IMG/VR virus record: IMGVR_UViG_2534681835_000035
DNA from: a virus
Lineage: Duplodnaviria; Heunggongvirae; Uroviricota; Caudoviricetes
DNA: 9,885 nt
Reading direction: 5' to 3' (one strand)
Shown one piece after another: positions 1-9,885 of this stretch (position 1 is the first letter of the stretch; every line of letters starts with the position of its first letter). Under the pieces are notes generated by a model. That model was not told where the DNA came from, did no database searches, and worked only from the letters and a program-made list of their open reading frames with translations. The translations under genes were made by a program, and so were the position numbers.

Positions 1-348
1 GCCTGCGGCAACGGCTTTCCGGCTGATGGTCGTACGGACCTTTTTACCCCGGAGAACACCGGCAAGTCCCATAACCGCCATGAGACGTGCCACTGTACAT
101 CTGGCCACCCTGATTCCTTCCCGTAACAACTGACGCCAGACTTTACGCACACCGTACACCTGATGATTTTCATCGTATACGCGCTGTATCTCTCTCTTCA
201 GCCAGTCGTCGTGCTGCGCACGGGCACTGCGTTTATCCGGATGATGTCGCTGTTGCTGACAATGGTAATACGTTGACGGGGCAATATGCAGTTCGCTGCA
301 TACCGGTCCGACCCCGTACTGCTCACGCAGCTTATCCAGCAGTGGCAT
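1..348 (-). CDS. IS3-family transposase OrfB (DDE catalytic subunit), N-terminal part only; 3' end outside window
   Basis: The ATG at 348..346 overlaps the orfA stop (ATGA). Translation [16 protein letters not shown]... continues to position 1 as ...GVLRGKKVRTTISRKAVAAG with no stop, in the -1 frame relative to orfA as expected for IS3-family OrfAB frameshifting. Confidence 0.85.
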   Translation of the reverse strand, partial: MPLLDKLREQYGVGPVCSELHIAPSTYYHCQQQRHHPDKRSARAQHDDWLKREIQRVYDENHQVYGVRKVWRQLLREGIRVARCTVARLMAVMGLAGVLRGKKVRTTISRKAVAAG

Positions 349-674
349 CATTTTTTCCAGAGGCGGTCGAACTCCGCCTTCGCAAAATAAGCGGAAGCCT
401 GGCGAAGGATATCGTTACTGCGGCGCAGTTCACGATTTTCACGTTCCAGCTCTTTCAGACGCTGACGTTCAGCGCTGGTGAGCCCACCATCACCGCCCCC
501 GGTATCCCGCTCATGCTGGCGAACCCAGACACGCAGAGTCTCCGGCGTACAGCCAATCTTTGGGGCAATGGAACAAATTGCCGCCCACTGTGAGTCATAT
601 TCATCCTGACTTTCCAGAACCATACGAATCGCCCGCTGACGGACTTCGGGGGAAAAACGAGTATTTTTAGTCAT
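348..674 (-). CDS. IS3-family transposase OrfA (HTH and leucine-zipper subunit)
   Basis: 108-aa [60 protein letters not shown]...[36 protein letters not shown], recognised as IS629/IS1203-type OrfA. An A-rich slippery run (CTG GAA AAA ATG A) sits at its 3' end, overlapping the orfB ATG. Confidence 0.9.
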
Positions 675-699
675 CCTGTTTACCTCTTTCTCAGGGAGT

Positions 700-1155
700 T
701 TAGTCTCCAGGATTTCCGGGGCGGTTCAGTTCAGCCATTTTGCGCTTAGTCATCCCCCGCCCCACATAACGCTGACTCAGAACATTGAGCAGCCCGGGAT
801 AACCTGCCAGTACTTCACCAATAACCCTGTCGATTATTAACGCCTCTGAATCGGTACAATGTGCCAGCCAGCTTTTTTGATTGCCGTTGATCATATCCCG
901 CAAAAAAGCCTCAAGTTCAGGTTTGTCCAGACCCGCTTTTTTCATCCTCCGGAGCGCCTCGTTAATTGCCGTTTTTGTCAGCTTTTTAGAGGTCAGTAAT
1001 TGGTTGAACATATTTCCCGTCTTACCGTCGCCAATATACGACCAACGCCCCCACATACGCAGTTTCCCCTGGATCCAGACACTTTCCAGCGTTTTCAGGC
1101 GTAAATGCTCACCGCTTTTGCCTGTAATTTCCGGGTATATCATATTTATGCTCAC
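700..1155 (-). CDS. Putative late-gene antiterminator (Q-like), 3' end disrupted by the IS insertion (last ~9 codons and the stop are IS-derived)
   Basis: 151-aa ORF directly downstream of rusA with an ATGA start/stop overlap, which is the position Q occupies in lambdoid phages. The reading frame crosses the IS terminus at 728/729, so the tail ...LNRPGNPGD and the stop are encoded by the IS inverted repeat. The Q assignment is by position and loose resemblance only, not by a recognised motif. Confidence 0.5.
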
Positions 1156-1511
1156 TCACTTTCAATTTTGTAAATCTTCACGCCCAGCCGCCCACCAGAA
1201 ACGAGCTGGCCGCGCACAATATTGATTTCATCAAACTGCTCGTCGTCTATGAGAAGTCCGGCATGCGTCAGCGCATCCAGTGGTGCTTTCAGGATATTGT
1301 CCAGGTCACGACGGCGCTTATCCGGTGGCTCTGCAATAATCTTTATCGCCAGCCTTCCGGACAGGTTTAATTTCAGCCGCTGCTGGCGAACAATAAGTGC
1401 CACATCCCGGCGATAACGCTCACCGGCTTTTGATACAAAATATGTGCTGCCACGACGTCGCCAGTAGGTGTTCACCGTCGGCGGGTAAGGCAAAACAAAC
1501 TCTATACGCAT
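1152..1511 (-). CDS. rusA: RusA-family Holliday junction resolvase (crossover junction endodeoxyribonuclease)
   Basis: 119 aa, MRIEFVLPYPPTVNTYWRRRG...PDKRRRDLDNILKAPLDALTHAGLLIDDEQF, matches the E. coli RusA pattern (PWPPS.N.YYR ... PDRRRRDLDN..KA..DALT.AG...DD.Q). Sits in the usual nin-region position upstream of Q. Confidence 0.9.
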   Translation of the reverse strand: MRIEFVLPYPPTVNTYWRRRGSTYFVSKAGERYRRDVALIVRQQRLKLNLSGRLAIKIIAEPPDKRRRDLDNILKAPLDALTHAGLLIDDEQFDEINIVRGQLVSGGRLGVKIYKIESE

Positions 1512-1523
1512 CAGTAACCTCTT

Positions 1524-2627
1524 TTACCCGAGCACGCCGGTTGCAAAGGCGTGATCAAGAAAACGAAAAATTAAATCAACCTGGGAACCATGCTTTTCTT
1601 CGAACGCCAGCGGATCCGCATGAAGCTCGTTGTGATGCTCCCGACACAGCGGTAGCGTGAAAATATCGTGGGATTTTGTTCCCATTCCGCCCTGACCATG
1701 ACCAATCAGATGATGAGGATCGTCCGCTGGCTTACCACAACACGCACACGGCTGTGTCTTTACCCAGCGTGTGTATTTCTCATTTACCCAGCGGCGACGT
1801 TTAGGTCGTTTCATGAAGGATTCCGGAGACTCCGGATCAACGGCAATGCTGACCACCGTCTTTTCCTGTGGTGGGTTCTGTTGCTGGTGGGTGTGAGGCG
1901 GTAGCGCAATATTTTTTGTGCGCTGCTTCAGTATGCTGGTGGCGGTCTGTTCTCCCGGTATGATGTCGCTTTCACGGTATACGGAGCGGATTTTTTCCGC
2001 CGGTAATCCCAGAGAGCGACGCGATACTGCCTCAGGTAATGCGTCCACCACCTGATTGCAGACTGCCCACCAGGATAATTCAGCCAGCGATAATTCCCGC
2101 TCCTGCGTGCCATTCATTACATGGCGTATGACGTCAATCATCCAGGCTGTCAGATTTTGTTGAGTAAGTTGCTCAAGTGATTCGGAGGTCTGGTCGCGCA
2201 GCTGGTTGTCGCAGTGCCAGCACAACACCATTGCGCCAGCACCGTAACTGTGAATAACGGTTTCGCTGTGATGATAATCGCCGTGTGGCCACTGGCAGGA
2301 TTTCACGTGACGTAATAACCAGTCAGACAGTGCACCAGCGCCGCCAGCTGCACGAATCACCCGCTCATCGCTGAAAAATGGCAGCAGTGATTTATCTTCC
2401 GCCAGCGGCTGGCGAACAGCAGGAACCGCTCCAGATGGCAGCGCCCGCATGTTTTTCGGTTCCGGCTCCACCAGCACCCTGCCGCGATGAAAAACTGGCA
2501 ATGATTCACGACCGGGCTTAAGGACCACCAGCCCGAGTTCCGGAACCAGAACAGGTCGAAGTAATACCCGCACATTACCTCCAGACGCGCTGACGGTAGC
2601 AGGCATGTGTCCGTGGCAGATGTGCAC
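1524..2627 (-). CDS. YdfU-like (DUF968-like) prophage protein with a C-terminal Cys/His-rich, HNH-like putative metal-binding motif; start codon uncertain
   Basis: 367-codon ORF from GTG 2627 (alternative ATG at 2606). C-terminal segment KTQPCACCGKPADDPHHLIGHGQGGMGTKSHDIFTLPLCREHHNELH has paired Cys and His residues. The gene sits 12 nt upstream of rusA, the same neighbourhood ydfU has next to Q in the Qin prophage. The DUF968 assignment is from memory. Confidence 0.65.
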   Translation of the reverse strand: MHICHGHMPATVSASGGNVRVLLRPVLVPELGLVVLKPGRESLPVFHRGRVLVEPEPKNMRALPSGAVPAVRQPLAEDKSLLPFFSDERVIRAAGGAGALSDWLLRHVKSCQWPHGDYHHSETVIHSYGAGAMVLCWHCDNQLRDQTSESLEQLTQQNLTAWMIDVIRHVMNGTQERELSLAELSWWAVCNQVVDALPEAVSRRSLGLPAEKIRSVYRESDIIPGEQTATSILKQRTKNIALPPHTHQQQNPPQEKTVVSIAVDPESPESFMKRPKRRRWVNEKYTRWVKTQPCACCGKPADDPHHLIGHGQGGMGTKSHDIFTLPLCREHHNELHADPLAFEEKHGSQVDLIFRFLDHAFATGVLG

Positions 2628-2847
2628 GAACAGGAAGATATACAGAAACGGTCCAGGTCAGACGATCAGCGTTCAGACTCCGCTCCACACGGACACCGCG
2701 ACGCAGATACGCCTCTTGAAGCATATCTGCCTCATCGATCGTACAGAACAGATAGTGAAACCAGCCATACTGAGGCGCACGAAAACGCCTCCCCTGCTTA
2801 ATTTCCGGGTCGGCTTCAGAATTGTGGGATTTTATGTGTTGTGTCAT
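2575..2847 (-). CDS. Hypothetical 90-aa protein overlapping the 5' end of the YdfU-like ORF by 53 nt in a different frame
   Basis: ATG at 2847 with a GGAG Shine-Dalgarno 6 nt upstream. The first ~60 residues look protein-like (MTQHIKSHNSEADPEIKQGRRFRAPQYGWFHYLFCTIDEADMLQEAYLRRG...); the last ~25 residues look like an out-of-frame readthrough. It occupies the position of rem in Qin, but no sequence match is claimed. Confidence 0.45.
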   Translation of the reverse strand: MTQHIKSHNSEADPEIKQGRRFRAPQYGWFHYLFCTIDEADMLQEAYLRRGVRVERSLNADRLTWTVSVYLPVRAHLPRTHACYRQRVWR

Positions 2848-2921
2848 CGGATTCTCCGGTGACAGCAGGTGTCAGTTGTTCAGGCTGACTGCGCGAATTG
2901 TAAGGCAATACGCCGGAATGT

Positions 2922-2950
2922 ACAAACAGAAAACCCGTCAGTAAGACGGG
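2922..2950 (-). terminator. Rho-independent terminator downstream of the YgiW-like gene
   Basis: On the minus strand a CCCGTC-TTACT-GACGGG hairpin (plus 2934..2950) is followed by TTTTCTGTTTGT, about 20 nt after the TAA stop at 2969. Confidence 0.55.
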
Positions 2951-2968
2951 CTTAACAAGCAGGGGCGG

Positions 2969-3313
2969 TTACTTTAATAATTTCAGTGCCTTTACATCAA
3001 CTTCAACACTGCTCAGGTCTTTATCAATTTCACCCTCAATTCTTACTTTGTCTTTCGGAGAAACATTCTGCCCGGCCCATACGCTGTCATCAATATCCGT
3101 GACAATTGTCCCGCTATTGTCACGAAACTCATAACGTTCATCACCCACTTTTTTAACGATGCTCCCTTCAAGGATAACCCATGCATCATCCTTCAGTTCT
3201 TTTGCCTGCGCTACTGTTGAACGCTCTGCTTCTGGCCCCTGGAAACCACCCTGCTGTGCAAAAGCGCCAAAAGACACACCGGAAATAAGTGCTGCAATCA
3301 ATACCTTTTTCAT
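2969..3313 (-). CDS. YgiW/YdeI (BOF) family periplasmic OB-fold protein with signal peptide
   Basis: 114 aa, MKKVLIAALISGVSFGAFA-QQGGFQGP..., with a signal peptide and AFA-QQ cleavage site, and the family pattern GGFQGP...W..L.G.IV......Y.F.D.SGTI..DID...W.G..V.PKD.V.I.GE.DKD..SVE.DVK. AGAGGA Shine-Dalgarno 7 nt before the ATG. Confidence 0.85.
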   Translation of the reverse strand: MKKVLIAALISGVSFGAFAQQGGFQGPEAERSTVAQAKELKDDAWVILEGSIVKKVGDERYEFRDNSGTIVTDIDDSVWAGQNVSPKDKVRIEGEIDKDLSSVEVDVKALKLLK

Positions 3314-3432
3314 TCATAGTCCTCTTTCAGAGATGAACATTCAAACAGCATTTTCAGTATGGTAAAGCGCGGGTGCGTTGAGGATGCCTGACACATCAGA
3401 GGTGGCGGGAGATTACTCCCCCGCCTGGTCTC

Positions 3433-3588
3433 TTACTTCTCAGATTCGTAGTCTACGAAGACAGCGACCTCCGTCTGACCGGTTCGGATTCGCACCTCGC
3501 AGAGGTCTTTCCTCGTTACCAGTGCCGTCACTATGACGGTTAAACAGATGACGATCAGGGCGATTAACATCGCCTTTTGCTGCTTCAT
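3433..3588 (-). CDS. hokD: Hok/Gef-family type I toxin (HokD/RelF-like small membrane peptide)
   Basis: 51 aa, MKQQKAMLIALIVICLTVIVTALVTRKDLCEVRIRTGQTEVAVFVDYESEK, near-identical to my recollection of RelF/HokD and carrying the Hok signature (LT/VTRK.LCE..IR.G..EVA.F..YES). AAGGAG Shine-Dalgarno 9 nt upstream of ATG 3588. The ORF track extends the same frame to an upstream ATG at 3645. Confidence 0.85.
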   Translation of the reverse strand: MKQQKAMLIALIVICLTVIVTALVTRKDLCEVRIRTGQTEVAVFVDYESEK

Positions 3589-3878
3589 AGCCTGCTTCTC
3601 CTTGCCTTTCGGCACGTAAGAGGCTAACCTACATGTGTTCAGCATGGATTGAGCCTCAGATTAATGTTAAGCGTCTTGCAGGACGCGTAATGTTAACTGG
3701 GGCTTTTCTCTATCTGCCGTTGGTGTTCATGCCCGAGGCAGATAGCCTCAAGCACCCGCTGCAATTCTACTTAACTATCCTTTTCCCGCAAACCGTTTTT
3801 ATCCCCAGCGGCAAATCGAATACTCCACCAGCGCCACCGCCATCGCAATTCCTACCGTTGTGAATGCTTCAGGCCAGG
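3589..3878 (-). promoter_or_regulatory. Long hok leader: candidate promoter, upstream in-frame mok-like start, and likely site of an antisense Sok-like RNA on the plus strand
   Basis: 290 bp separate the upstream gene from hok. Candidate minus-strand promoter TTGCGG-N16-TAGAAT (plus 3791..3764). Stable inverted repeats in the leader (TATCTGCC 3711..3718 with GGCAGATA 3737..3744; GCGTC 3671..3675 with GACGC 3682..3686) and an imperfect hairpin just 3' of hok (3404..3425). By analogy with hok/sok loci, an antisense RNA would be transcribed rightward from about 3600..3700, but its ends are not determined. Confidence 0.35.
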
Positions 3879-4436
3879 TCATTGATTCACCTCCTGCGGC
3901 GGTTCTGGTAGCGACATCCAGTGGGTTGCTTGCCTAAGATCATTACCCGGACTAACTGCTATACCTCCGCGCCGGAACGTGCCTCCGAGATAGCGTGCGG
4001 AATATATTAATGGCCCAGCCTCGCTATCGATATTCATCGAAATAAGCACGTTCTGGCTCTTTTCAGGCATTCGCTCAGTACAGCTTATCCAGCCATCCAG
4101 AGTTATCGGAGATCTGGTTGACGTTTCCGAGATTTCCCGAAAATTGTTGGTTGACGAATTCTTATTTTCCCGAAAGTTTCCGGCCTGAAGCATGGCGACG
4201 CGGCAGGCGTTCCAGCCATCAGCATATGTTTTAGTTACACCGTCGAGATGGCAGGTAAGCAAATCCATTTCATCAGGCACTACCATTGCTATCGGCTCTG
4301 CTTCCAGTGATGCCAGCGCGATACGAAACACATTAGCCAGCAGGCTGTCTGAAGACTTGTTATCGTGCGCCGAGTCGCTCAGGAAGCCTGTGATGTATGA
4401 TTTAATCTCCGCGCGTTCTCTGGTAATAGTGCTCAT
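3879..4436 (-). CDS. DUF551-domain prophage protein
   Basis: 185 aa; C-terminal GWISCTERMPEKSQNVLI...YSARYLGG...THWMSLPEPP matches the DUF551 signature as I recall it (W...ERLPE ... THWMPLPEPP). AAGGA Shine-Dalgarno 9 nt upstream; start is 1 nt from the preceding gene's stop. Confidence 0.8.
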   Translation of the reverse strand: MSTITRERAEIKSYITGFLSDSAHDNKSSDSLLANVFRIALASLEAEPIAMVVPDEMDLLTCHLDGVTKTYADGWNACRVAMLQAGNFRENKNSSTNNFREISETSTRSPITLDGWISCTERMPEKSQNVLISMNIDSEAGPLIYSARYLGGTFRRGGIAVSPGNDLRQATHWMSLPEPPQEVNQ

Positions 4437-4437
4437 A

Positions 4438-4656
4438 TCAGTTTTCCTTATACGGATTAATTTTATTGTGCAGTGCGCTGAATGATTCCCATGTCACATC
4501 GGTATATAGCTCAATAACTGGTTCAAATGTCCTTCCAATTATCCAGACCAGTAATAGCGGGGATATCGGTATCATCAACACTATAAACAGAATGAAAAAC
4601 AGAAACTCTGTTGTTCTGCTCTTTCGTGGGTAATTTTTTTCTAAATAATGTTTCAT
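4438..4656 (-). CDS. Small hypothetical membrane protein (one predicted transmembrane helix) in an AT-rich patch
   Basis: 72 aa with hydrophobic core FLFFILFIVLMIPISPLLLVWIIG. Tightly coupled to the DUF551 gene. The ATG is preceded by AGGAGG, then a CCGCCC-GAAA-GGGCGG hairpin, then 6 nt. Confidence 0.55.
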   Translation of the reverse strand: MKHYLEKNYPRKSRTTEFLFFILFIVLMIPISPLLLVWIIGRTFEPVIELYTDVTWESFSALHNKINPYKEN

Positions 4657-4662
4657 TTCTTA

Positions 4663-4684
4663 CCGCCCTTTCGGGCGGCCTCCT
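4663..4684 (-). other. Shine-Dalgarno, stable hairpin, start codon arrangement in the 5' UTR of the small membrane-protein gene
   Basis: Minus strand: AGGAGG (4684..4679), perfect 6-bp stem with GAAA loop (4678..4663), UAAGAA, AUG (4656). The unfolded SD-to-AUG spacing is about 22 nt and becomes about 6 nt if the hairpin forms. Confidence 0.35.
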
Positions 4685-4783
4685 GATGTTCTGAGGGTGC
4701 AGGAATCCCTCCGGTTAAGGATTTAATAAAAATCGTTTCTGATTTAAATCTTCAGTATTTAGTTGTTAGTTGGTTTATCGCCT

Positions 4784-5095
4784 TTATGCTTCAGCCTTAT
4801 TTCGCAACCAGACACAAACCGGGCCATCTTCCGTATCATGAATGGAACCAATAAACCAGCCATCGCCCTCTGGTCGTTCCGGTTCCCATGCAGAAATATC
4901 AGCATCACACGCATCAAGGTCAGCACATCCTTCATCTCTGAAGCAGAGGACGTATTGAAGATTATTTTCCTCCATCCAGGCGTTAAACTCTTCCGTTGAA
5001 ATATATTCCCGACCATCACAGAATTTTTCATATTCAGGATGTGTCCAGTAGCCATATCCGTCACGAACTACCGGCATTTCTTTAATTTTACTCAC
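4784..5095 (-). CDS. Hypothetical small, strongly acidic protein
   Basis: 103 aa with about 24 Asp/Glu against 9 Lys/Arg by my count (DEGCADLDACDADISAWEPERPEGDGW...). GTG start at 5095 with AGGAGG 6 nt upstream, overlapping the previous gene's stop (GTGAGTAA). Confidence 0.6.
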   Translation of the reverse strand: MSKIKEMPVVRDGYGYWTHPEYEKFCDGREYISTEEFNAWMEENNLQYVLCFRDEGCADLDACDADISAWEPERPEGDGWFIGSIHDTEDGPVCVWLRNKAEA

Positions 5096-5315
5096 TGTTA
5101 ACCTCCTGCAACGCTACACGATACGCCTTCTTTATCCACGCCTTACTGCCATATAATTTCGTCTTCATAATAAACACACCTGCACGACTCGCCGATATCC
5201 CCGGACAGGTTAACAGCACAGCATCCACCACACGGTTATGCTTCCGAAACTCCATTACAGTACTGCTGATAACCACCTGCCCCACCGGGCCGTAATCCTG
5301 ATACAGGATTTTCAC
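5088..5315 (-). CDS. Hypothetical 75-aa protein
   Basis: ORF translationally coupled to both neighbours (4-nt overlap upstream, 8-nt overlap downstream). No recognisable family. Confidence 0.5.
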   Translation of the reverse strand: MKILYQDYGPVGQVVISSTVMEFRKHNRVVDAVLLTCPGISASRAGVFIMKTKLYGSKAWIKKAYRVALQEVNSE

Positions 5316-5593
5316 GCAGACACCCTCCTGTCGAAATAAACGTAGTTATTCACTATGCGCAGCGGCATGCCTAATTTTCTGGCAATTTCCCTTCTTTGCA
5401 TGCCTCTCTGATGCAGTTGCCGCGCCAGCTCAATATCACGCTGAGAATATTTTGCCGACGGGTGAAAATCACCACGTAACATCATGCTGATGCCCAGCTC
5501 CCGTGCCTTCGTTCTCACTGCCGCTTCAGTTCGTCCGATAAGTGCGCCAACGCTTTTTACCTTCATCGTTCCCGCACACTGCCGGAGTATCAT
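5312..5593 (-). CDS. Hypothetical small protein with two helix-turn-helix-like segments; start uncertain
   Basis: ATG at 5593 (MILRQ...); alternatives are ATG 5566 and the ORF-track start 5716, which would overlap the upstream gene by 91 nt. HTH-like segments SVGALIGRTEAAVRTKARELGI and QRREIARKLGMPLRIVNNYV. Confidence 0.45.
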   Translation of the reverse strand: MILRQCAGTMKVKSVGALIGRTEAAVRTKARELGISMMLRGDFHPSAKYSQRDIELARQLHQRGMQRREIARKLGMPLRIVNNYVYFDRRVSA

Positions 5594-5625
5594 GATTTCC
5601 GCCCGGCACCACGTCTTCCACCCAC

Positions 5626-6360
5626 TCACCGCTGCTGTTCTCTGGTGGCGGTAATATCCCGGAGAATATCCCGGCACTTGTTCAGCTCCCGCAGCGCGGC
5701 GCAGACTCGCTCCCACTTCTGAACCTGACCTTTTGCCCGGCGCAGCTCGCGGTTAGCCACATGCAGCGATGGTAAAATCAGACCATCCGGATGCTTTCTG
5801 GTGAACGACGGCTGTGACTGCACTGTGACCGCCACACTTTCCGTTTTTATTTCTTCCTGTGTTTCCGCTTCCCCGACTGGTAACGCAACACCTGCTGGCT
5901 GAGGAAAGGCTTTACCATCCGTTTCCGCTATGGATGCGGCTTTCGGCTCTGCCGGTAAATCAGCGCCCGGTATGCAGTACCGAAATTTACCGCCCTGATT
6001 CACGCGAATCAGACGCCCTTTGCTGATTGCCATGGCCAGTGATGAATTCGCCCGGCGGGAGGTAATCCCGAACATCAGTGCCAGCTCATCCGCCGTTTGT
6101 GGGCCATGATGTTCAATCGCCTCAGTCAGCATTTGCGCTGTCACTTTCGGTACCGGTGACACTGGTTCACTTTCACCAGCCTGAATCAGCCACCACATCG
6201 AACCCTTGTTATCCGCTTCACCACGGCGCTTCAGTTTCCACAGTTCGTTGACAGCATCTTCGCGGCTGATTCCAAGGCGCGATGCCACTACCTGTGAAGA
6301 GGCTTTTTTCAGTGCTTTCAGTGCGTCAAATACAGTTTCCATTAAAACGTCCTCCAACAA
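5626..6360 (-). CDS. YdaW-like (DUF1627-like) prophage protein with two winged-helix-like repeats
   Basis: 244 aa, 3 nt downstream of the DnaC-like gene, as ydaW follows ydaV in Rac. Internal repeats [24 protein letters not shown] and [29 protein letters not shown]. Family name is from memory. Confidence 0.65.
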
Positions 6361-6363
6361 AAA

Positions 6364-7110
6364 TTACTTCACAACCCTCTGATTGCTGACATTTGGACGC
6401 CAGCTATCCCAGTTAAACGTCACCCACCGACCACCGTTCATGGTCATGCGGTCCATAATCCTCTCACCAAGAAGCGTGCTCATTGCGGCATGATTCAGGT
6501 TTGTTAACATCCCGACACTGCACAGTGATGCTGTCCGGCGATCAATTATCTGGTGTAATACCACCTGCTCGTTTTTCGTCTCCCGCTGAACGCCTATTTC
6601 ATCCAGGACCAGCAAATCAACACTGCAAAGCTCCTGTAAAAATTTTTCCCCGGATTTGCCGTTGTCGTAGCTGTCATGCAACACGCTCATGACATCAGAC
6701 ACGGTGACGATAATCACGCTGCGCCCCTTCGCCATCAGCCGGTTACCCATCGCCGCTGCAAGGTGATTTTTCCCGGTGCCGGTTTTACCGCTGAACACAA
6801 AATTCGTGCACCCGGTCATCAGTTCGTCAGCTATGGATTTGGCCTGGCTCAGCGCGTATTTTTGCCCGTCGTTCTGCACCTGATAATTCGCAAACGAGCA
6901 TTTGCTGTGCAGAGGCTGGATGCCCGAACGATTCAGGATTTTTTCCACCCGCAACTGGTGATTCTGGCGGTTAATCTCCTCGCTGCGTTTTCGTCCTTCA
7001 ACAAGTTGCCATTCCCGCCACTCCTCCACCGTCCGGTACGGTGGAACCGACGCCTGTGGTGCAAGTCTGCGAATACGTTCAAGAACCCCGGCTGCCGCAA
7101 TGTTTTTCAT
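6364..7110 (-). CDS. DnaC-like helicase loader (AAA+ IstB-like ATPase), phage replication protein
   Basis: 248 aa, collinear with E. coli DnaC: RSGIQPLHSKCSFANYQV, Walker A FSGKTGTGKNHLAAAMG, Walker B DLLVLDEIGVQ, C-terminal WVTFNWDSWR. Confidence 0.9.
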   Translation of the reverse strand: MKNIAAAGVLERIRRLAPQASVPPYRTVEEWREWQLVEGRKRSEEINRQNHQLRVEKILNRSGIQPLHSKCSFANYQVQNDGQKYALSQAKSIADELMTGCTNFVFSGKTGTGKNHLAAAMGNRLMAKGRSVIIVTVSDVMSVLHDSYDNGKSGEKFLQELCSVDLLVLDEIGVQRETKNEQVVLHQIIDRRTASLCSVGMLTNLNHAAMSTLLGERIMDRMTMNGGRWVTFNWDSWRPNVSNQRVVK

Positions 7111-7116
7111 GCCACA

Positions 7117-7770
7117 TCACCCCCTGAATCCCGGCGGAATTTCGGTATCCGGTTCAGAAATATGATTCACACAACGCTGGTTGTTCGTGCCGCTTACCGG
7201 GAGCAACCAGGGGTTTTCAAAATTCCGGTCCGGCCCAAAAAACGTCGTCGCTCGCTGAACAAATTCCGTTCCCGTTTTCCCGGTAGCCGCCAGGTATCTT
7301 GCGTAACGCCTCACACCATCCAGTATGGCCTCTGGTGGCACCCCCTCGCGTAATCTGGCCTTCCAGGCACTGAAAGCGGATTTCTTCGGGTTTGCCCCAG
7401 CACGCAACGGGTATTCCCGCCAGACCTGTTCGAACACATCCGGATAATCCACTCGTCCCACAGGCTGCCCGGTGTTTTCCGGGACTACCCGATCGGCTTC
7501 CCGCTGAATGGCGGAATCGGCTTCAGGCTGCTGCAGTTGGTGTGATTGCTCCGGCCTTGCGGTCATCACCTGCTGCACAGCGCCCGAATCGGCTTTCAGC
7601 GCATACGCTGAATCGGCTTCCGGTGTCGTGCCTGCTGGCTGACCAGGATTGACGGTCTGAACATCCCCTGCCTGGTTCGTGGCGTTTTTTACGCCATGGA
7701 CCATAGTGTTTTGATCTTCTTGATCTGTATCTTTATCTGTATCTTTATCTGTCGTGACTCGTCGTGACAT
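7117..7770 (-). CDS. Replication-initiator-like protein, C-terminal part (ORF2), possibly the 3' portion of a single gene frameshifted relative to 7745..8188
   Basis: 217 aa, ending 6 nt before the DnaC-like gene. C-terminal domain DYPDVFEQVWREYPLRAGANPKKSAFSAWKARL...TGKTGTEFVQRATTFFGPDRNFENPW resembles a replisome-organiser C-terminal motif. The 5' end lies inside the iteron array and encodes TDKDTDKDTD from tandem repeats. Confidence 0.6.
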   Translation of the reverse strand: MSRRVTTDKDTDKDTDQEDQNTMVHGVKNATNQAGDVQTVNPGQPAGTTPEADSAYALKADSGAVQQVMTARPEQSHQLQQPEADSAIQREADRVVPENTGQPVGRVDYPDVFEQVWREYPLRAGANPKKSAFSAWKARLREGVPPEAILDGVRRYARYLAATGKTGTEFVQRATTFFGPDRNFENPWLLPVSGTNNQRCVNHISEPDTEIPPGFRG

Positions 7771-7799
7771 GTGCGTGACATTTCGTGACGCGCCGTGAC
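7723..7799. repeat. Putative replication-origin repeats: 2.5 copies of a 12-bp tandem repeat (ATCTGTATCTTT) followed by five direct CGTGAC iteron-like repeats at 10-11 bp spacing
   Basis: CGTGAC at 7753, 7763, 7774, 7784 and 7794. The 12-mer is at 7723..7734 and 7735..7746 with a partial copy at 7747..7758. An AT-rich tract lies immediately to the left (about 7700..7750). Confidence 0.6.
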
Positions 7800-8188
7800 A
7801 ATCGCCATTTTGTTCCCGCTTTCTTTCCCTCTCTCGCTGCGCCCTCTTGCGCTCTGCAGGAGATTTTGCGGTTTGACGAAATATTGCCGTTGTCCTCTTT
7901 AAGCACCTGGCGTTTTTCCCATCCAGTGATTAAATCACCATCAAGTACCCGCCCCTGCATCGTCTGCAAAATTGAATCAATTACCTCTTCTGTCACGTCG
8001 AGCGCACTTGCCAAATCTTCTGTCGTGACATCAATGTGACCTCGCGTGACATTTCGTGACGCGCTCACCAGGAGGTGGATATACACTGCCATCACTGTTG
8101 CAATTGGCTGCCCTGACACCCTGGCAATTGTTCGCCACTTAGGGTCATTTGGCATGTCATGCCATAATCTGAGCCAGGCGTTAGCCAT
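7745..8188 (-). CDS. Replication-initiator-like protein, N-terminal part (ORF1)
   Basis: ATG at 8188 with AAGAGGTGA Shine-Dalgarno (the ORF track starts at GTG 8194). N-terminal MANAWLRLWHDMPNDPKWRTIARVSGQPIATVMAVYIHLL resembles phage replication-initiator DNA-binding domains. The ORF ends inside the first iteron cluster and overlaps ORF2 by 26 nt in the +1 frame. Confidence 0.6.
   Translation of the reverse strand: MANAWLRLWHDMPNDPKWRTIARVSGQPIATVMAVYIHLLVSASRNVTRGHIDVTTEDLASALDVTEEVIDSILQTMQGRVLDGDLITGWEKRQVLKEDNGNISSNRKISCRAQEGAAREGKKAGTKWRLSRRVTKCHAHVTTSHDR
7992..8064. repeat. Second iteron-like cluster: CGTGAC at 8024, 8045 and 8055, a TGTGAC variant at 8035, and an inverted copy GTCACG at 7992..7997
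   Basis: The 20-mer CGTGACATTTCGTGACGCGC occurs at both 7774..7793 and 8045..8064. Spacing is again 10-11 bp. Confidence 0.55.
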
Positions 8189-8259
8189 ACTCACCTCTTC
8201 TGATACCGAATCTTTTTACTCACGAGTTGCCGGAAGCGATTCGATACGGCTATTGTCAG

Positions 8260-8685
8260 TCAATGTACTGCCACAGCATTTCCTGCCGGGCCACCACGGT
8301 TCATCTGATTGAAACCGGCGATTGCCACTGCGACAAAATCATCAGCGTCTCTCACCAGTCGCTCCCGCGTCTCCACCAGCTCCCGAAAATAAGCTGAACT
8401 GTGGCTGCGCATTCTGGCCACCAGCAAAGGTGGCATTGCCTTTTCGATCGCTGGTAACAACGCCTGAATTTTTTCAACTGCATCAGGGGTGTCTTTCTCT
8501 ACCCAGCGGAAAATTTTCTGGGTATTGCGAGCCAGGGCTTCCGGATGGCTGTCGTCATACAGTTCAGGAAACGTCATACCCAACTCAAAATAAGCCTGGG
8601 TTATTCCAGCTGCTGGAACTTTTTCGCCATCAGGACGCGCCCAGGCATTCATCGCCATGCGGATGTGTTCATGCTTGATTTTCAT
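8260..8685 (-). CDS. YdaT-like prophage protein (occupies the cII position downstream of cro)
   Basis: 141 aa beginning MKIKHEHI and ending ...VH, matching my recollection of Rac YdaT-family proteins. AGGAG Shine-Dalgarno 8 nt upstream; overlaps the Cro-like gene by 17 nt. Confidence 0.6.
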   Translation of the reverse strand: MKIKHEHIRMAMNAWARPDGEKVPAAGITQAYFELGMTFPELYDDSHPEALARNTQKIFRWVEKDTPDAVEKIQALLPAIEKAMPPLLVARMRSHSSAYFRELVETRERLVRDADDFVAVAIAGFNQMNRGGPAGNAVAVH

Positions 8686-8950
8686 GAATCAAGCTCCTAG
8701 TAAGTGGTTGTGTTAACGTTTTGGTATCTTCCAGCTCGGGCCAAATATTCATCCAATCAAAAGGCCTTAGTTGCTGACGTGTAACTTCACCATTACTGGC
8801 TCGCTCAATAAGGACACATAACGATGCCCCTAACATTTGACCTTTACTCAATGCCTTTCTTAGATAACCGATGCTAGTACCACACTCACATGCAAACATA
8901 CGCTGTTCATCTGACGAAAGAGAATTGAGAAATATTCTTAATTCTTCCAT
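8669..8950 (-). CDS. Cro/YdaS-like HTH regulator
   Basis: 93 aa with a Cro-like motif (GTSIGYLRKALSKGQMLGASLCVLIERASNGEVTRQQLRPFDW). AAGGAG Shine-Dalgarno 6 nt upstream. Divergent from the repressor gene. Confidence 0.7.
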   Translation of the reverse strand: MEELRIFLNSLSSDEQRMFACECGTSIGYLRKALSKGQMLGASLCVLIERASNGEVTRQQLRPFDWMNIWPELEDTKTLTQPLTRSLIHENQA

Positions 8951-9049
8951 AGCTACTCCTTAGTAAACACAGCAAGAATACCCACAGGTAAACAAAAGTC
9001 AATACCCTTGGGTTGTTTACCTTGCGGTAATCGCATCTATTATTTACCT
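8951..9049. promoter_or_regulatory. Divergent promoter/operator region between the Cro-like and repressor genes (OR-like)
   Basis: Three TACC-N4-GGTA-type inverted repeats: 8979..8990 (TACCCACAGGTA), 9003..9014 (TACCCTTGGGTT, one arm imperfect) and 9018..9029 (TACCTTGCGGTA). Leftward PR-like promoter TTGACT (plus 9002..8997), 16-nt spacer, TATTCT (8980..8975). Rightward PRM-like -10 TATTAT (9038..9043) ends 6 nt before ATG 9050, suggesting a leaderless repressor mRNA. Confidence 0.55.
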
Positions 9050-9467
9050 ATGGACAAATATGAATTTAGACGACAACAACTCATCAAAATTCGTGATGAG
9101 AAATGCGATGGTAAAGCGGTTAACGTGGCCAGAAAGATCGGTCGCGAGCCTTCTTATGTATCAAGAATGTTGTACCCAGAGGGGAAAAAGGAAAAAACGG
9201 ATCGCTGATGATATGGTGGAGATTATAGAAGAGTCCTTTGGGTTACCCCGGGGATGGATGGATGGTATCGTTTCATCATCAACGAACACAGCCTCCAATT
9301 ATGAAACAAGGGTTCTAACGCCACGACAACGTATTTTTTTAGATCTCTTAGACGAACTGCCAGAAAGTGAAGCGGATAACTTATTAAAAACTCTTGAAGA
9401 GAAAAAACAGTATTACAATATGATCTACGAAGAAATCCGTAAAAAGAAAGCACAAAACGCATCATAA
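9050..9467 (+). CDS. CI/RacR-like prophage repressor, reading frame interrupted by an apparent +1 frameshift in the G4A5G2A6 tract at 9181..9197
   Basis: Frame A (ATG 9050) encodes an N-terminal HTH (KAVNVARKIGREPSYVSRMLYPEGKK) and stops at 9206..9208. Frame B continues from about 9198 with protein-like sequence RIADDMVEIIEESFGLPRGWMDG...LLKTLEEKKQYYNMIYEEIRKKKAQNAS to 9467. Removing one A from the A6 run would fuse them into a protein of about 138 aa. Confidence 0.6.
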
Positions 9468-9509
9468 CTCACCAAACAACCAGTCACCAGTTAAGACACA
9501 TCAAAAAAT

Positions 9510-9546
9510 TACCCATGGGTATTTACTTTTTAAATACCCATGGGTA
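9510..9546. promoter_or_regulatory. Two perfect 12-bp palindromes TACCCATGGGTA, 25 bp centre to centre: OL-like operators flanking a putative rightward promoter
   Basis: Palindromes at 9510..9521 and 9535..9546 share the TACC-N4-GGTA architecture with the OR-like sites. Between and over them: -35-like TTTACT (9522..9527), 17-nt spacer, -10-like TATCCT (9545..9550). Confidence 0.55.
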
Positions 9547-9732
9547 TCCTTCCTTTCATACCAACCCACCCCGTCCCACAGAACGCAGGGCAATACTTCG
9601 AGTTACCAGGCAGTGGTCAGGGGGTAAGTAGCCAGCCCGAGGCGTAAGAACATGACGGCAGGGTTCAACTTTAATAACTATGCAGCAGGTTTTTGTTCCG
9701 CTACCCCGGCGTTAAGGGGAAATGAGGTCAGC

Positions 9733-9885
9733 ATGGATACTATCGATCTTGGCAACAGCGAATCTCTGGTATGCGGCGTGTTTCCCAACCAGGACGGTAC
9801 GTTTACCGCGATGACGTATACCAAAAGTAAAACGTTTAAAACCGAAGCTGGCGCGCATCGCTGGTTAGCAAGAAACTCCGACTGA
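9733..9885 (+). CDS. Small early protein (YdaF/YdaG-like), first gene of the rightward operon leaving the immunity region
   Basis: 50 aa, MDTIDLGNSESLVCGVFPNQDGTFTAMTYTKSKTFKTEAGAHRWLARNSD, with GAGG Shine-Dalgarno 6 nt upstream of ATG 9733 (the ORF track starts further upstream at 9652). Resemblance to Rac YdaF is from memory. Confidence 0.5.
   Translation: MDTIDLGNSESLVCGVFPNQDGTFTAMTYTKSKTFKTEAGAHRWLARNSD

Follow-up and report, generated by a model that had tools for sequence, protein, structure and literature searches.

A probable lambdoid immunity switch with five TACC-N4-GGTA palindromes in a Qin/Rac-like prophage of Escherichia coli, and the conservation of its sites across three classes of Proteobacteria

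The 9,885-bp stretch of viral DNA analysed here (Caudoviricetes; IMG/VR record IMGVR_UViG_2534681835_000035; hereafter the window) is 99.96% identical from position 727 to 9885 to a prophage of Escherichia coli O111:H- 11128, and is part of a Qin/Rac-like lambdoid prophage. Its region 8951-9560 is very probably the immunity switch of that prophage, and the five palindromic sites found there would be the operators of a small helix-turn-helix (HTH) repressor and, by inference, also of the divergently encoded Cro-like protein.

The sites share the pattern TACC-N4-GGTA (TACCNNNNGGTA), which has four exact copies in the window, starting at 8979, 9018, 9510 and 9535 and all of them within 8951-9560. 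Shuffling the sequence gave an expectation of 0.08 exact matches, and none of 200 shuffles reached four. The original prediction, which was made from the sequence alone, had counted five such sites, a number that holds if one mismatch is allowed in the fifth (9003-9014, TACCCTTGGGTT), the right half of which reads GGTT. Two further one-mismatch copies, at 7027 and 8500, are scattered and in line with chance (1.9 expected), and were set aside. The coordinates bear out the predicted placement of three sites between the divergent genes and two downstream of the repressor gene, and both downstream sites are, as claimed, perfect 12-bp palindromes (TACCCATGGGTA). The predicted spacing of 24-25 bp between centres is found for sites 1 and 2 (24 bp) and for sites 4 and 5 (25 bp), but leaves out the 15-bp step between sites 2 and 3. 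A candidate sixth site overlapping the repressor ATG (TACCTATGGACA, 9046-9057) was rejected: it has two mismatches, lies inside the conserved coding start ATGGAYAAATAY, and its upstream half is not kept in relatives. The same part of the window holds a direct repeat (TTGTTTACCT at 9013-9022 and TTATTTACCT at 9040-9049, 27 bp apart), with its second copy between the -10 hexamer of the repressor promoter and the ATG, which is probably due to chance since it is not conserved in relatives.

The arrangement of the sites follows that of the promoters, which we name, like the sites, after their lambda counterparts (Table 1). A sigma-70 promoter scan covering 8600-9885 yielded exactly two sites, the PR and PRM equivalents, both located at the palindromes and facing each other between start codons about 100 bp apart (8950 on the minus strand and 9050 on the plus strand); the candidate PL equivalent was read by eye. 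The centre of OR1 lies at about -16.5 relative to the inferred PR start. OR2 abuts the PR -35 hexamer, is 1 nt away from the PRM -35 hexamer, and has its centre at about -41 from both inferred starts (-40.5 for PR and -41.5 for PRM), while OR3 has its centre at -26.5 relative to the ATG of the repressor gene. The regions around PR and PL mirror each other: 8971-9018 forms an inverted repeat with 9506-9554 (the repeat finder reports arms 25 nt long at 84% and 27 nt long at 74%), and on each promoter one site supplies the 'TA' of the -10 hexamer and the other ends where the -35 hexamer begins. The predicted mirror image, with one site on the -10 and the other against the -35 hexamer, agrees with this repeat and with the promoter positions. 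Transcription from the PL equivalent would enter the DUF1391/ydfA-like gene (9733-9885); in O111 it would run on to dicB.

Table 1. Features of the window and of its putative immunity region (positions are those of the 9,885-bp window)
Feature	Position	Strand	Sequence or extent	Remarks
OR1-equivalent (putative operator)	8979..8990		TACCCACAGGTA	exact; covers spacer and first 2 nt of PR -10 hexamer
OR2-equivalent (putative operator)	9003..9014		TACCCTTGGGTT	one mismatch; imperfect right half
OR3-equivalent (putative operator)	9018..9029		TACCTTGCGGTA	exact; overlaps PRM -35 hexamer and spacer
OL2-equivalent (putative operator)	9510..9521		TACCCATGGGTA	exact; abuts PL -35 hexamer
OL1-equivalent (putative operator)	9535..9546		TACCCATGGGTA	exact; covers spacer and first 2 nt of PL -10 hexamer
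PR-equivalent promoter (predicted)	9002-8975	-	TTGACT-16-TATTCT	scan; upstream of cro-like and ydaT-like genes
PRM-equivalent promoter (predicted)	9016-9043	+	TTTACC-16-TATTAT	scan
PL-equivalent promoter (predicted)	9522..9550	+	TTTACT (9522-9527)-17-TATCCT (9545-9550)	read by eye
Repressor gene	9050..9467	+	139 aa when intact (O111)	WP_000362152.1, annotated 'hypothetical protein'
Hairpin	9510..9546	+	perfect 16-bp stem, 5-nt loop	OL2, OL1 and flanks; 43 nt past repressor stop codon
Cro/YdaS-like HTH gene	8669..8950	-	93 aa	
YdaT gene (CII equivalent)	8260-8685	-		PF06254, 39.6 bits (cut-off 21)
DUF1391/ydfA gene	9733-9885	+		dicB further downstream in O111 genome
sok antisense RNA	3583-3757	-		Rfam RF01794, 113 bits
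ALIL frameshift pseudoknot	277-393	-		Rfam; in IS1203 element

In order to see how far this arrangement is shared, we surveyed 47 loci (445 kb; 43 of them non-redundant) that encode the same N-terminal DNA-binding domain. The sample comprises the mEp043, Salmonella and Yersinia loci and a further 41 genome loci retrieved by a profile search for the DNA-binding module, from taxa that include Klebsiella, Edwardsiella, Pantoea, Aeromonas, Vibrio, Burkholderia, Neisseria, Stenotrophomonas and Rhizobium, and thus spans three classes of Proteobacteria. The layout of three plus two sites, at equal distances from the start codon of the repressor gene, recurs in mEp043, Salmonella, Yersinia and the 41 further genomes. 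The 47 loci hold 151 exact copies of TACC-N4-GGTA, 146 at OR or OL positions (74 around OR, as a rule at -72/-73 and -32/-33 relative to the repressor start codon, and 72 in a downstream pair spaced 24-26 bp) and only 5 elsewhere, close to the chance rate.

Site by site, the homologue of OR1 has at most one mismatch in all 43 non-redundant loci and is essentially always perfect. In 38 of them it lies between -71 and -75 relative to the repressor ATG, and in the other five the alignment begins after the ATG. The OR2 homologue, 24-26 bp from OR1, is imperfect in all 43, its right half being cut to GG, and the TCAA of the PR -35 hexamer next to it is kept across the related loci. OR3 is found 39-40 bp from OR1, exact in 26 loci and with one mismatch in 14. 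The OL pair was recognised in 38 of the 43 loci, spaced 24-26 bp (25 in most), 460-3700 bp past the repressor start and behind varied cargo genes; in every one of these 38 pairs a -35-like hexamer follows directly after OL2 and a -10-like hexamer begins at the last two bases of OL1. The consensus of the sites is (T)TACC-YRYR-GGTA(A). Its central four bases vary between sites of one locus and therefore do not look like an immunity code, and the positions are kept while these bases and the flanks diverge across the three classes. Nearly all loci also encode the divergent Cro, which forms a conserved family. In the reverse direction, IMG/VR was scanned for two sites 13-14 bp apart, which returned at least 120 contigs; among the matches listed, 98 of 120 viral contigs (82%) encode the DNA-binding module or a Cro homologue. 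Taken with the locus survey, this indicates that motif, positions and proteins travel together. Five Klebsiella loci (L008, L011, L012, L014 and L015) retain the repressor module together with OR1 and a downstream site, but neither an OR2 nor, upstream, a Cro homologue could be recognised in them; perhaps they are a form of the cassette reduced to its repressor.

In regards to the start of the repressor, the -10 hexamer TATTAT ends 6 nt ahead of the ATG (9050) and no Shine-Dalgarno sequence is present there, from which a leaderless mRNA is predicted. The cro-like gene has the Shine-Dalgarno sequence AAGGAG 5 nt before its ATG (8950) and an 18-nt leader. Among the relatives, 33 of 38 loci have a -10-like hexamer whose end is 6-7 nt ahead of the repressor start codon, a figure that is biased because the best hexamer in a narrow stretch was taken in each case. 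OR3 contains the PRM -35 hexamer TTTACC across the relatives, and the cleaner argument for a leaderless start is the fixed distance from OR3 to the ATG. The claim of a leaderless, PRM-type start without a Shine-Dalgarno sequence had been part of the original prediction; at the sequence level the TATTAT-6 nt-ATG geometry is present and conserved, and a repressor mRNA that starts on the A of the start codon, or directly beside it, is well supported as a prediction. Leaderless transcripts have been shown by experiment for lambda cI and for PaaR2 of prophage CP-933P, the latter together with the OR, OL and PL of that prophage (PMC8630535). In a group of beta-proteobacterial and Stenotrophomonas loci (L024, L027, L028, L031, L033, L034, L039 and L043-L047) the cro ATG stands 6 nt past the PR -10 hexamer, e.g. 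GGTAAAAT-TCGCCC-ATG, at about -84 from the repressor ATG, and there both divergent genes look leaderless, in mirror symmetry.

The repressor has the layout of the small repressors DicA and PaaR2 (about 135 aa, an N-terminal HTH and a C-terminal helical domain). A Pfam search with the 139-aa protein found no domain, the S24 peptidase PF00717 included, and to judge from its sequence it is not a cleavable protein of the lambda cI type. Its AlphaFold model (mean predicted local distance difference test score 85.7) has a four-helix N-terminal domain with the HTH at residues 23-40, a disordered linker (77-87) and a C-terminal helical hairpin at 92-138 (helices 92-103 and 106-138). Foldseek places the N-terminal domain among HTH proteins of the XRE type (C.Esp1396I, HigA, SinR and TP901-1 CI), and sequence searches of the PDB with the repressor and with a profile of its N-terminal domain gave insignificant matches to Z-alpha/winged-helix proteins only. 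The C-terminus is DicA-like (NCBIfam NF007257 at residues 84-136, E 2.5e-5; 33% identity over 46 residues to DicA residues 84-129 in BLASTP, E 1e-7). Residues 1-74 behave as a module, which is fused to an S24 peptidase (PF00717) in 80 of the best 120 database homologues. It reaches 85% identity in Salmonella and 65% in coliphage mEp043 (residues 1-86), and these homologues diverge immediately past the residues GWMDG. The recognition helix, REPSYVSRMLY, is invariant or nearly so in the family, in parallel with the invariant TACC half-site. Past this helix lies a lysine-rich loop (YPEGKKGKKRIAD, residues 41-53, window positions about 9170-9210) that is near-invariant in the family and modelled with high confidence; it may be an extra DNA-contacting arm.

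A working scheme for the switch can be proposed from these positions, on the pattern of lambda and CP-933P. In the lysogen, repressor dimers on OR1 and the intrinsically weak OR2 would turn off PR and with it the cro-like and ydaT-like genes, and repressor on OL1 and OL2, a pair of the same geometry, would turn off PL and the genes from ydfA to dicB. The dimer on OR2, at about -41.5 from the PRM start, would stand at the position of an activating contact and could stimulate PRM, while occupation of OR3 would occlude the PRM -35 hexamer and lower repressor synthesis. The PRM transcript would begin with the A of the ATG or a base adjoining it, like those of lambda cI and PaaR2. The DicA-like helical C-terminus probably oligomerises the repressor, perhaps with looping between OR and OL over about 556 bp, and since there is no S24 autoprotease domain, induction is predicted to proceed by a route other than RecA-stimulated self-cleavage.

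Several features of the window weigh against this reading as it stands. The centres of OR2 and OR3 are 15 bp apart, on roughly opposite faces of the helix, as compared with 23-24 bp in lambda, and lambda-style pairwise cooperativity is therefore not simply transferable. OR3 is perfect and OR2 is not, so that the order of filling may differ from that in lambda. The PL equivalent fits only 8 of 12 consensus positions, which is why it had to be read by eye, and relatives have a stronger -10 hexamer than its TATCCT. Finally, the reading frame of the repressor is broken in the window. Alignment with O111 traces the frameshift to two single-A deletions at about 9190 and 9192, three bases apart (A6 to A5 and A7 to A6), in the A-runs that encode KKGKK; in E. 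coli these same A6 and A7 runs encode the loop of residues 41-53. A third single-base indel, an added A at 7876, disrupts an O-like replication gene, and the three are the only gaps relative to the O111 prophage over 9.2 kb. The repressor segment is intact in all 821 complete E. coli genomes that carry the gene, and since none of them has the deletions, the defect is private to the source of the window, which suggests sequencing errors in the source assembly. A programmed frameshift or phase variation at the A-runs was considered and rejected, as these runs do not vary in any of the 821 genomes. Such prophage repressors, e.g. those of Qin and e14, are essential in the lysogen (PMC5917428), and because the present one should silence the dicB operon, the frameshift is more likely a sequencing or assembly error than a private mutation.

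A feature of the two downstream palindromes absent from their original description is that, with their flanks, they form a hairpin (Table 1), with a fold of -25.7 kcal/mol (z = -5.6) and 6 of 16 base pairs G-C, which the scan calls terminator-like on both strands. One could accordingly hold that this pair is mainly an intrinsic terminator of the repressor transcript, guarding against read-through into the toxic ydfA-dicB genes, and not a pair of operators. The perfect stem so close behind the stop codon, its energy and the scan result all speak for such a role, as does the fact that the stem runs 4 bp past each palindrome. These extra base pairs, however, can be explained by the TTTAC of the -35 hexamer and an A-rich flank, and the tail, UCCUUCCUUU, is a poor U-tract. 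Moreover, the OL pairs of the relatives stand 460-3700 bp from the repressor start and have a median cross-site stem of 4 bp (median energy -11 kcal/mol over the 38 pairs), yet their -35 and -10 hexamers are always in register. We therefore regard a mainly terminating function as improbable. The hairpin, whose tail (TCCTTCCTTT) is broken by a C, is lacking in most relatives and is therefore a peculiarity of this lineage rather than the reason for the sites. That it adds, in this lineage and on top of operator function, an intrinsic terminator for PRM transcripts is conceivable, though less likely than not; if it did, PRM transcripts would be halted ahead of the ydfA-dicB operon.

A second alternative, which we judge still less probable, is that the Cro/YdaS-like protein alone, or some other factor, recognises the sites, while the 139-aa protein would act at other places or would not be the immunity repressor. 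The comparative data cannot separate the two proteins, since a Cro homologue co-occurs with the motif about as well as the repressor domain does (92 versus 88 of 120 viral contigs, among the matches listed). In the five Klebsiella loci, however, where no Cro homologue was detected, the repressor gene is still accompanied by OR1 and a downstream site, the recognition helix of the repressor is invariant together with the half-site, and the two proteins share operators in every lambdoid switch studied, CP-933P included (PMC8630535). That the repeats are chance palindromes or functionless remnants of a duplication is hardly credible: the motif is short (8 specified bases), but the shuffles never reach four matches and the positions are conserved although the central bases and flanks diverge. 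The reading of the five sites as operators of the repressor, and by extension of Cro, thus remains the one we follow.

Compared with lambda, the region has the same divergent repressor and cro genes with three putative operators between them, a further cluster at PL past the repressor gene, a site spacing of 24-25 bp on PR and PL, a weak middle operator at about -42 from PRM, and a repressor mRNA predicted to be leaderless. About 82 bp separate the inferred PR and PRM starts, similar to their separation in lambda. It differs in its 12-bp core TACC-N4-GGTA as against a 17-bp operator, in having two OL sites instead of three, in the 15 bp between OR2 and OR3, and in a repressor without the S24 autocleavage domain; its PL leads to genes of the ydfA/dicB type and not to N, and the CII function comes from a protein of the YdaT type. 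CP-933P (Sp12 of O157:H7; PMC8630535, PMC9986795) is likewise a cryptic lambdoid prophage of enterohaemorrhagic E. coli (EHEC), with a small non-S24 repressor, a leaderless PRM and a YdaT that is nearly the same protein, and its operator TTGATT-N6-AATCAA is present in the window. However, its repressor has another DNA-binding domain, as judged from the PaaR2 start MQKKE rather than by direct sequence comparison, its operators are 18-bp repeats with the consensus GTTTAGTAA, and the paaA2-parE2 toxin-antitoxin genes have no counterpart behind the repressor of the window.

With the DicA/DicC switch of Qin in E. coli K-12 the window shares the gene order (the cro-like dicC, the divergent repressor dicA, then ydfA to dicB), the DicA-like C-terminus of the repressor and a ydfA that is near-identical from about 30 bp upstream of its start, whereas the N-terminal domain of the repressor is without similarity to DicA, and the intergenic and operator/PL DNA is unrelated. 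In mEp043 the reverse is seen: the DNA-binding domain is 65% identical, Cro is homologous, the layout of three plus two TACC-N4-GGTA sites is identical down to the GGTT at OR2, and an annotated putative PL is located at the OL pair, but its cI has an S24 peptidase C-terminus, its PL leads to N and its CII is of the lambda/P22 type. The best Foldseek match, E 1.3e-3, was Rep of Salmonella phage SPC32H (PDB 5D50), a repressor that is removed by an antirepressor and that also has no protease domain, although the match is weak (template modelling score about 0.45, 16-22% identity); no antirepressor gene came to light here, where no search was aimed at one.

The neighbouring genes were identified by RefSeq and family searches. 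The Cro-like protein matches phrog_35, 'transcriptional repressor' (E 2e-23), and scores 25.9 bits against YdaS_toxin PF15943, under the gathering score of 30, and the YdaT protein matches the PDB entries 3c4r (E 8e-89) and 8bt1 (E 4e-79). A single exact copy of OM, TTGATT-N6-AATCAA, lies at 8675-8692, where it takes in the last bases of the cro-like gene as well as the start codon of ydaT; in CP-933P this sequence has been footprinted as the operator of YdaT (PMC9986795). By its sequence, this copy marks the PRE/CII-equivalent part of the window as being of the CP-933P type, joined to a different cI/cro/operator cassette. Rfam found nothing in 8951-9560, its sole matches in the window being the ALIL pseudoknot and sok. 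The former belongs to the end of an IS1203/IS3-family insertion sequence (IS) at window positions 1-729, joined to the prophage at a position that lacks an IS in the O111 reference, and sok, beside a Hok/Gef gene, makes up a hok/sok toxin-antitoxin locus in the prophage.

Our searches of the literature found no description of a TACC-N4-GGTA operator or its variants, nor of the operators of mEp043. Given its standard lambdoid layout, the switch is conceptually ordinary, and the immunity type is uncharacterised but widespread and of a well-known kind. What is mildly surprising is that half-site, geometry and recognition helix are strictly conserved over three classes of Proteobacteria while the C-terminal domain is swapped. 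We tentatively propose, without regarding it as the likelier outcome, that the DNA-binding domain, Cro and the TACC-N4-GGTA array form one portable immunity cassette, fixed from the Enterobacterales to Neisseria, Burkholderia, Stenotrophomonas and Rhizobium, in which only the C-terminal domain is exchanged (S24 versus DicA-like), and that in E. coli the OL pair may double as a terminator. If this is true, and the central four bases do not set specificity, mutual immunity would be expected across genera, including between mEp043 and this EHEC prophage, and the evolving part of the switch would be the route of induction and not the operator code.

The array supplies an explicit candidate operator code for an immunity type that occurs in many Proteobacteria besides E. 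coli, where 821 of 5426 complete genomes (about 15%) carry it. The DNA-binding domain of its repressor has no Pfam model. Since the repressor is predicted to keep the dicB-containing operon silent, it probably matters for the viability of the host, like the repressors of Qin and e14 (PMC5917428). The invariant half-site predicts cross-immunity with mEp043, and a fixed operator-reading module with exchangeable C-termini offers a clean natural case for the swapping of induction mechanisms.

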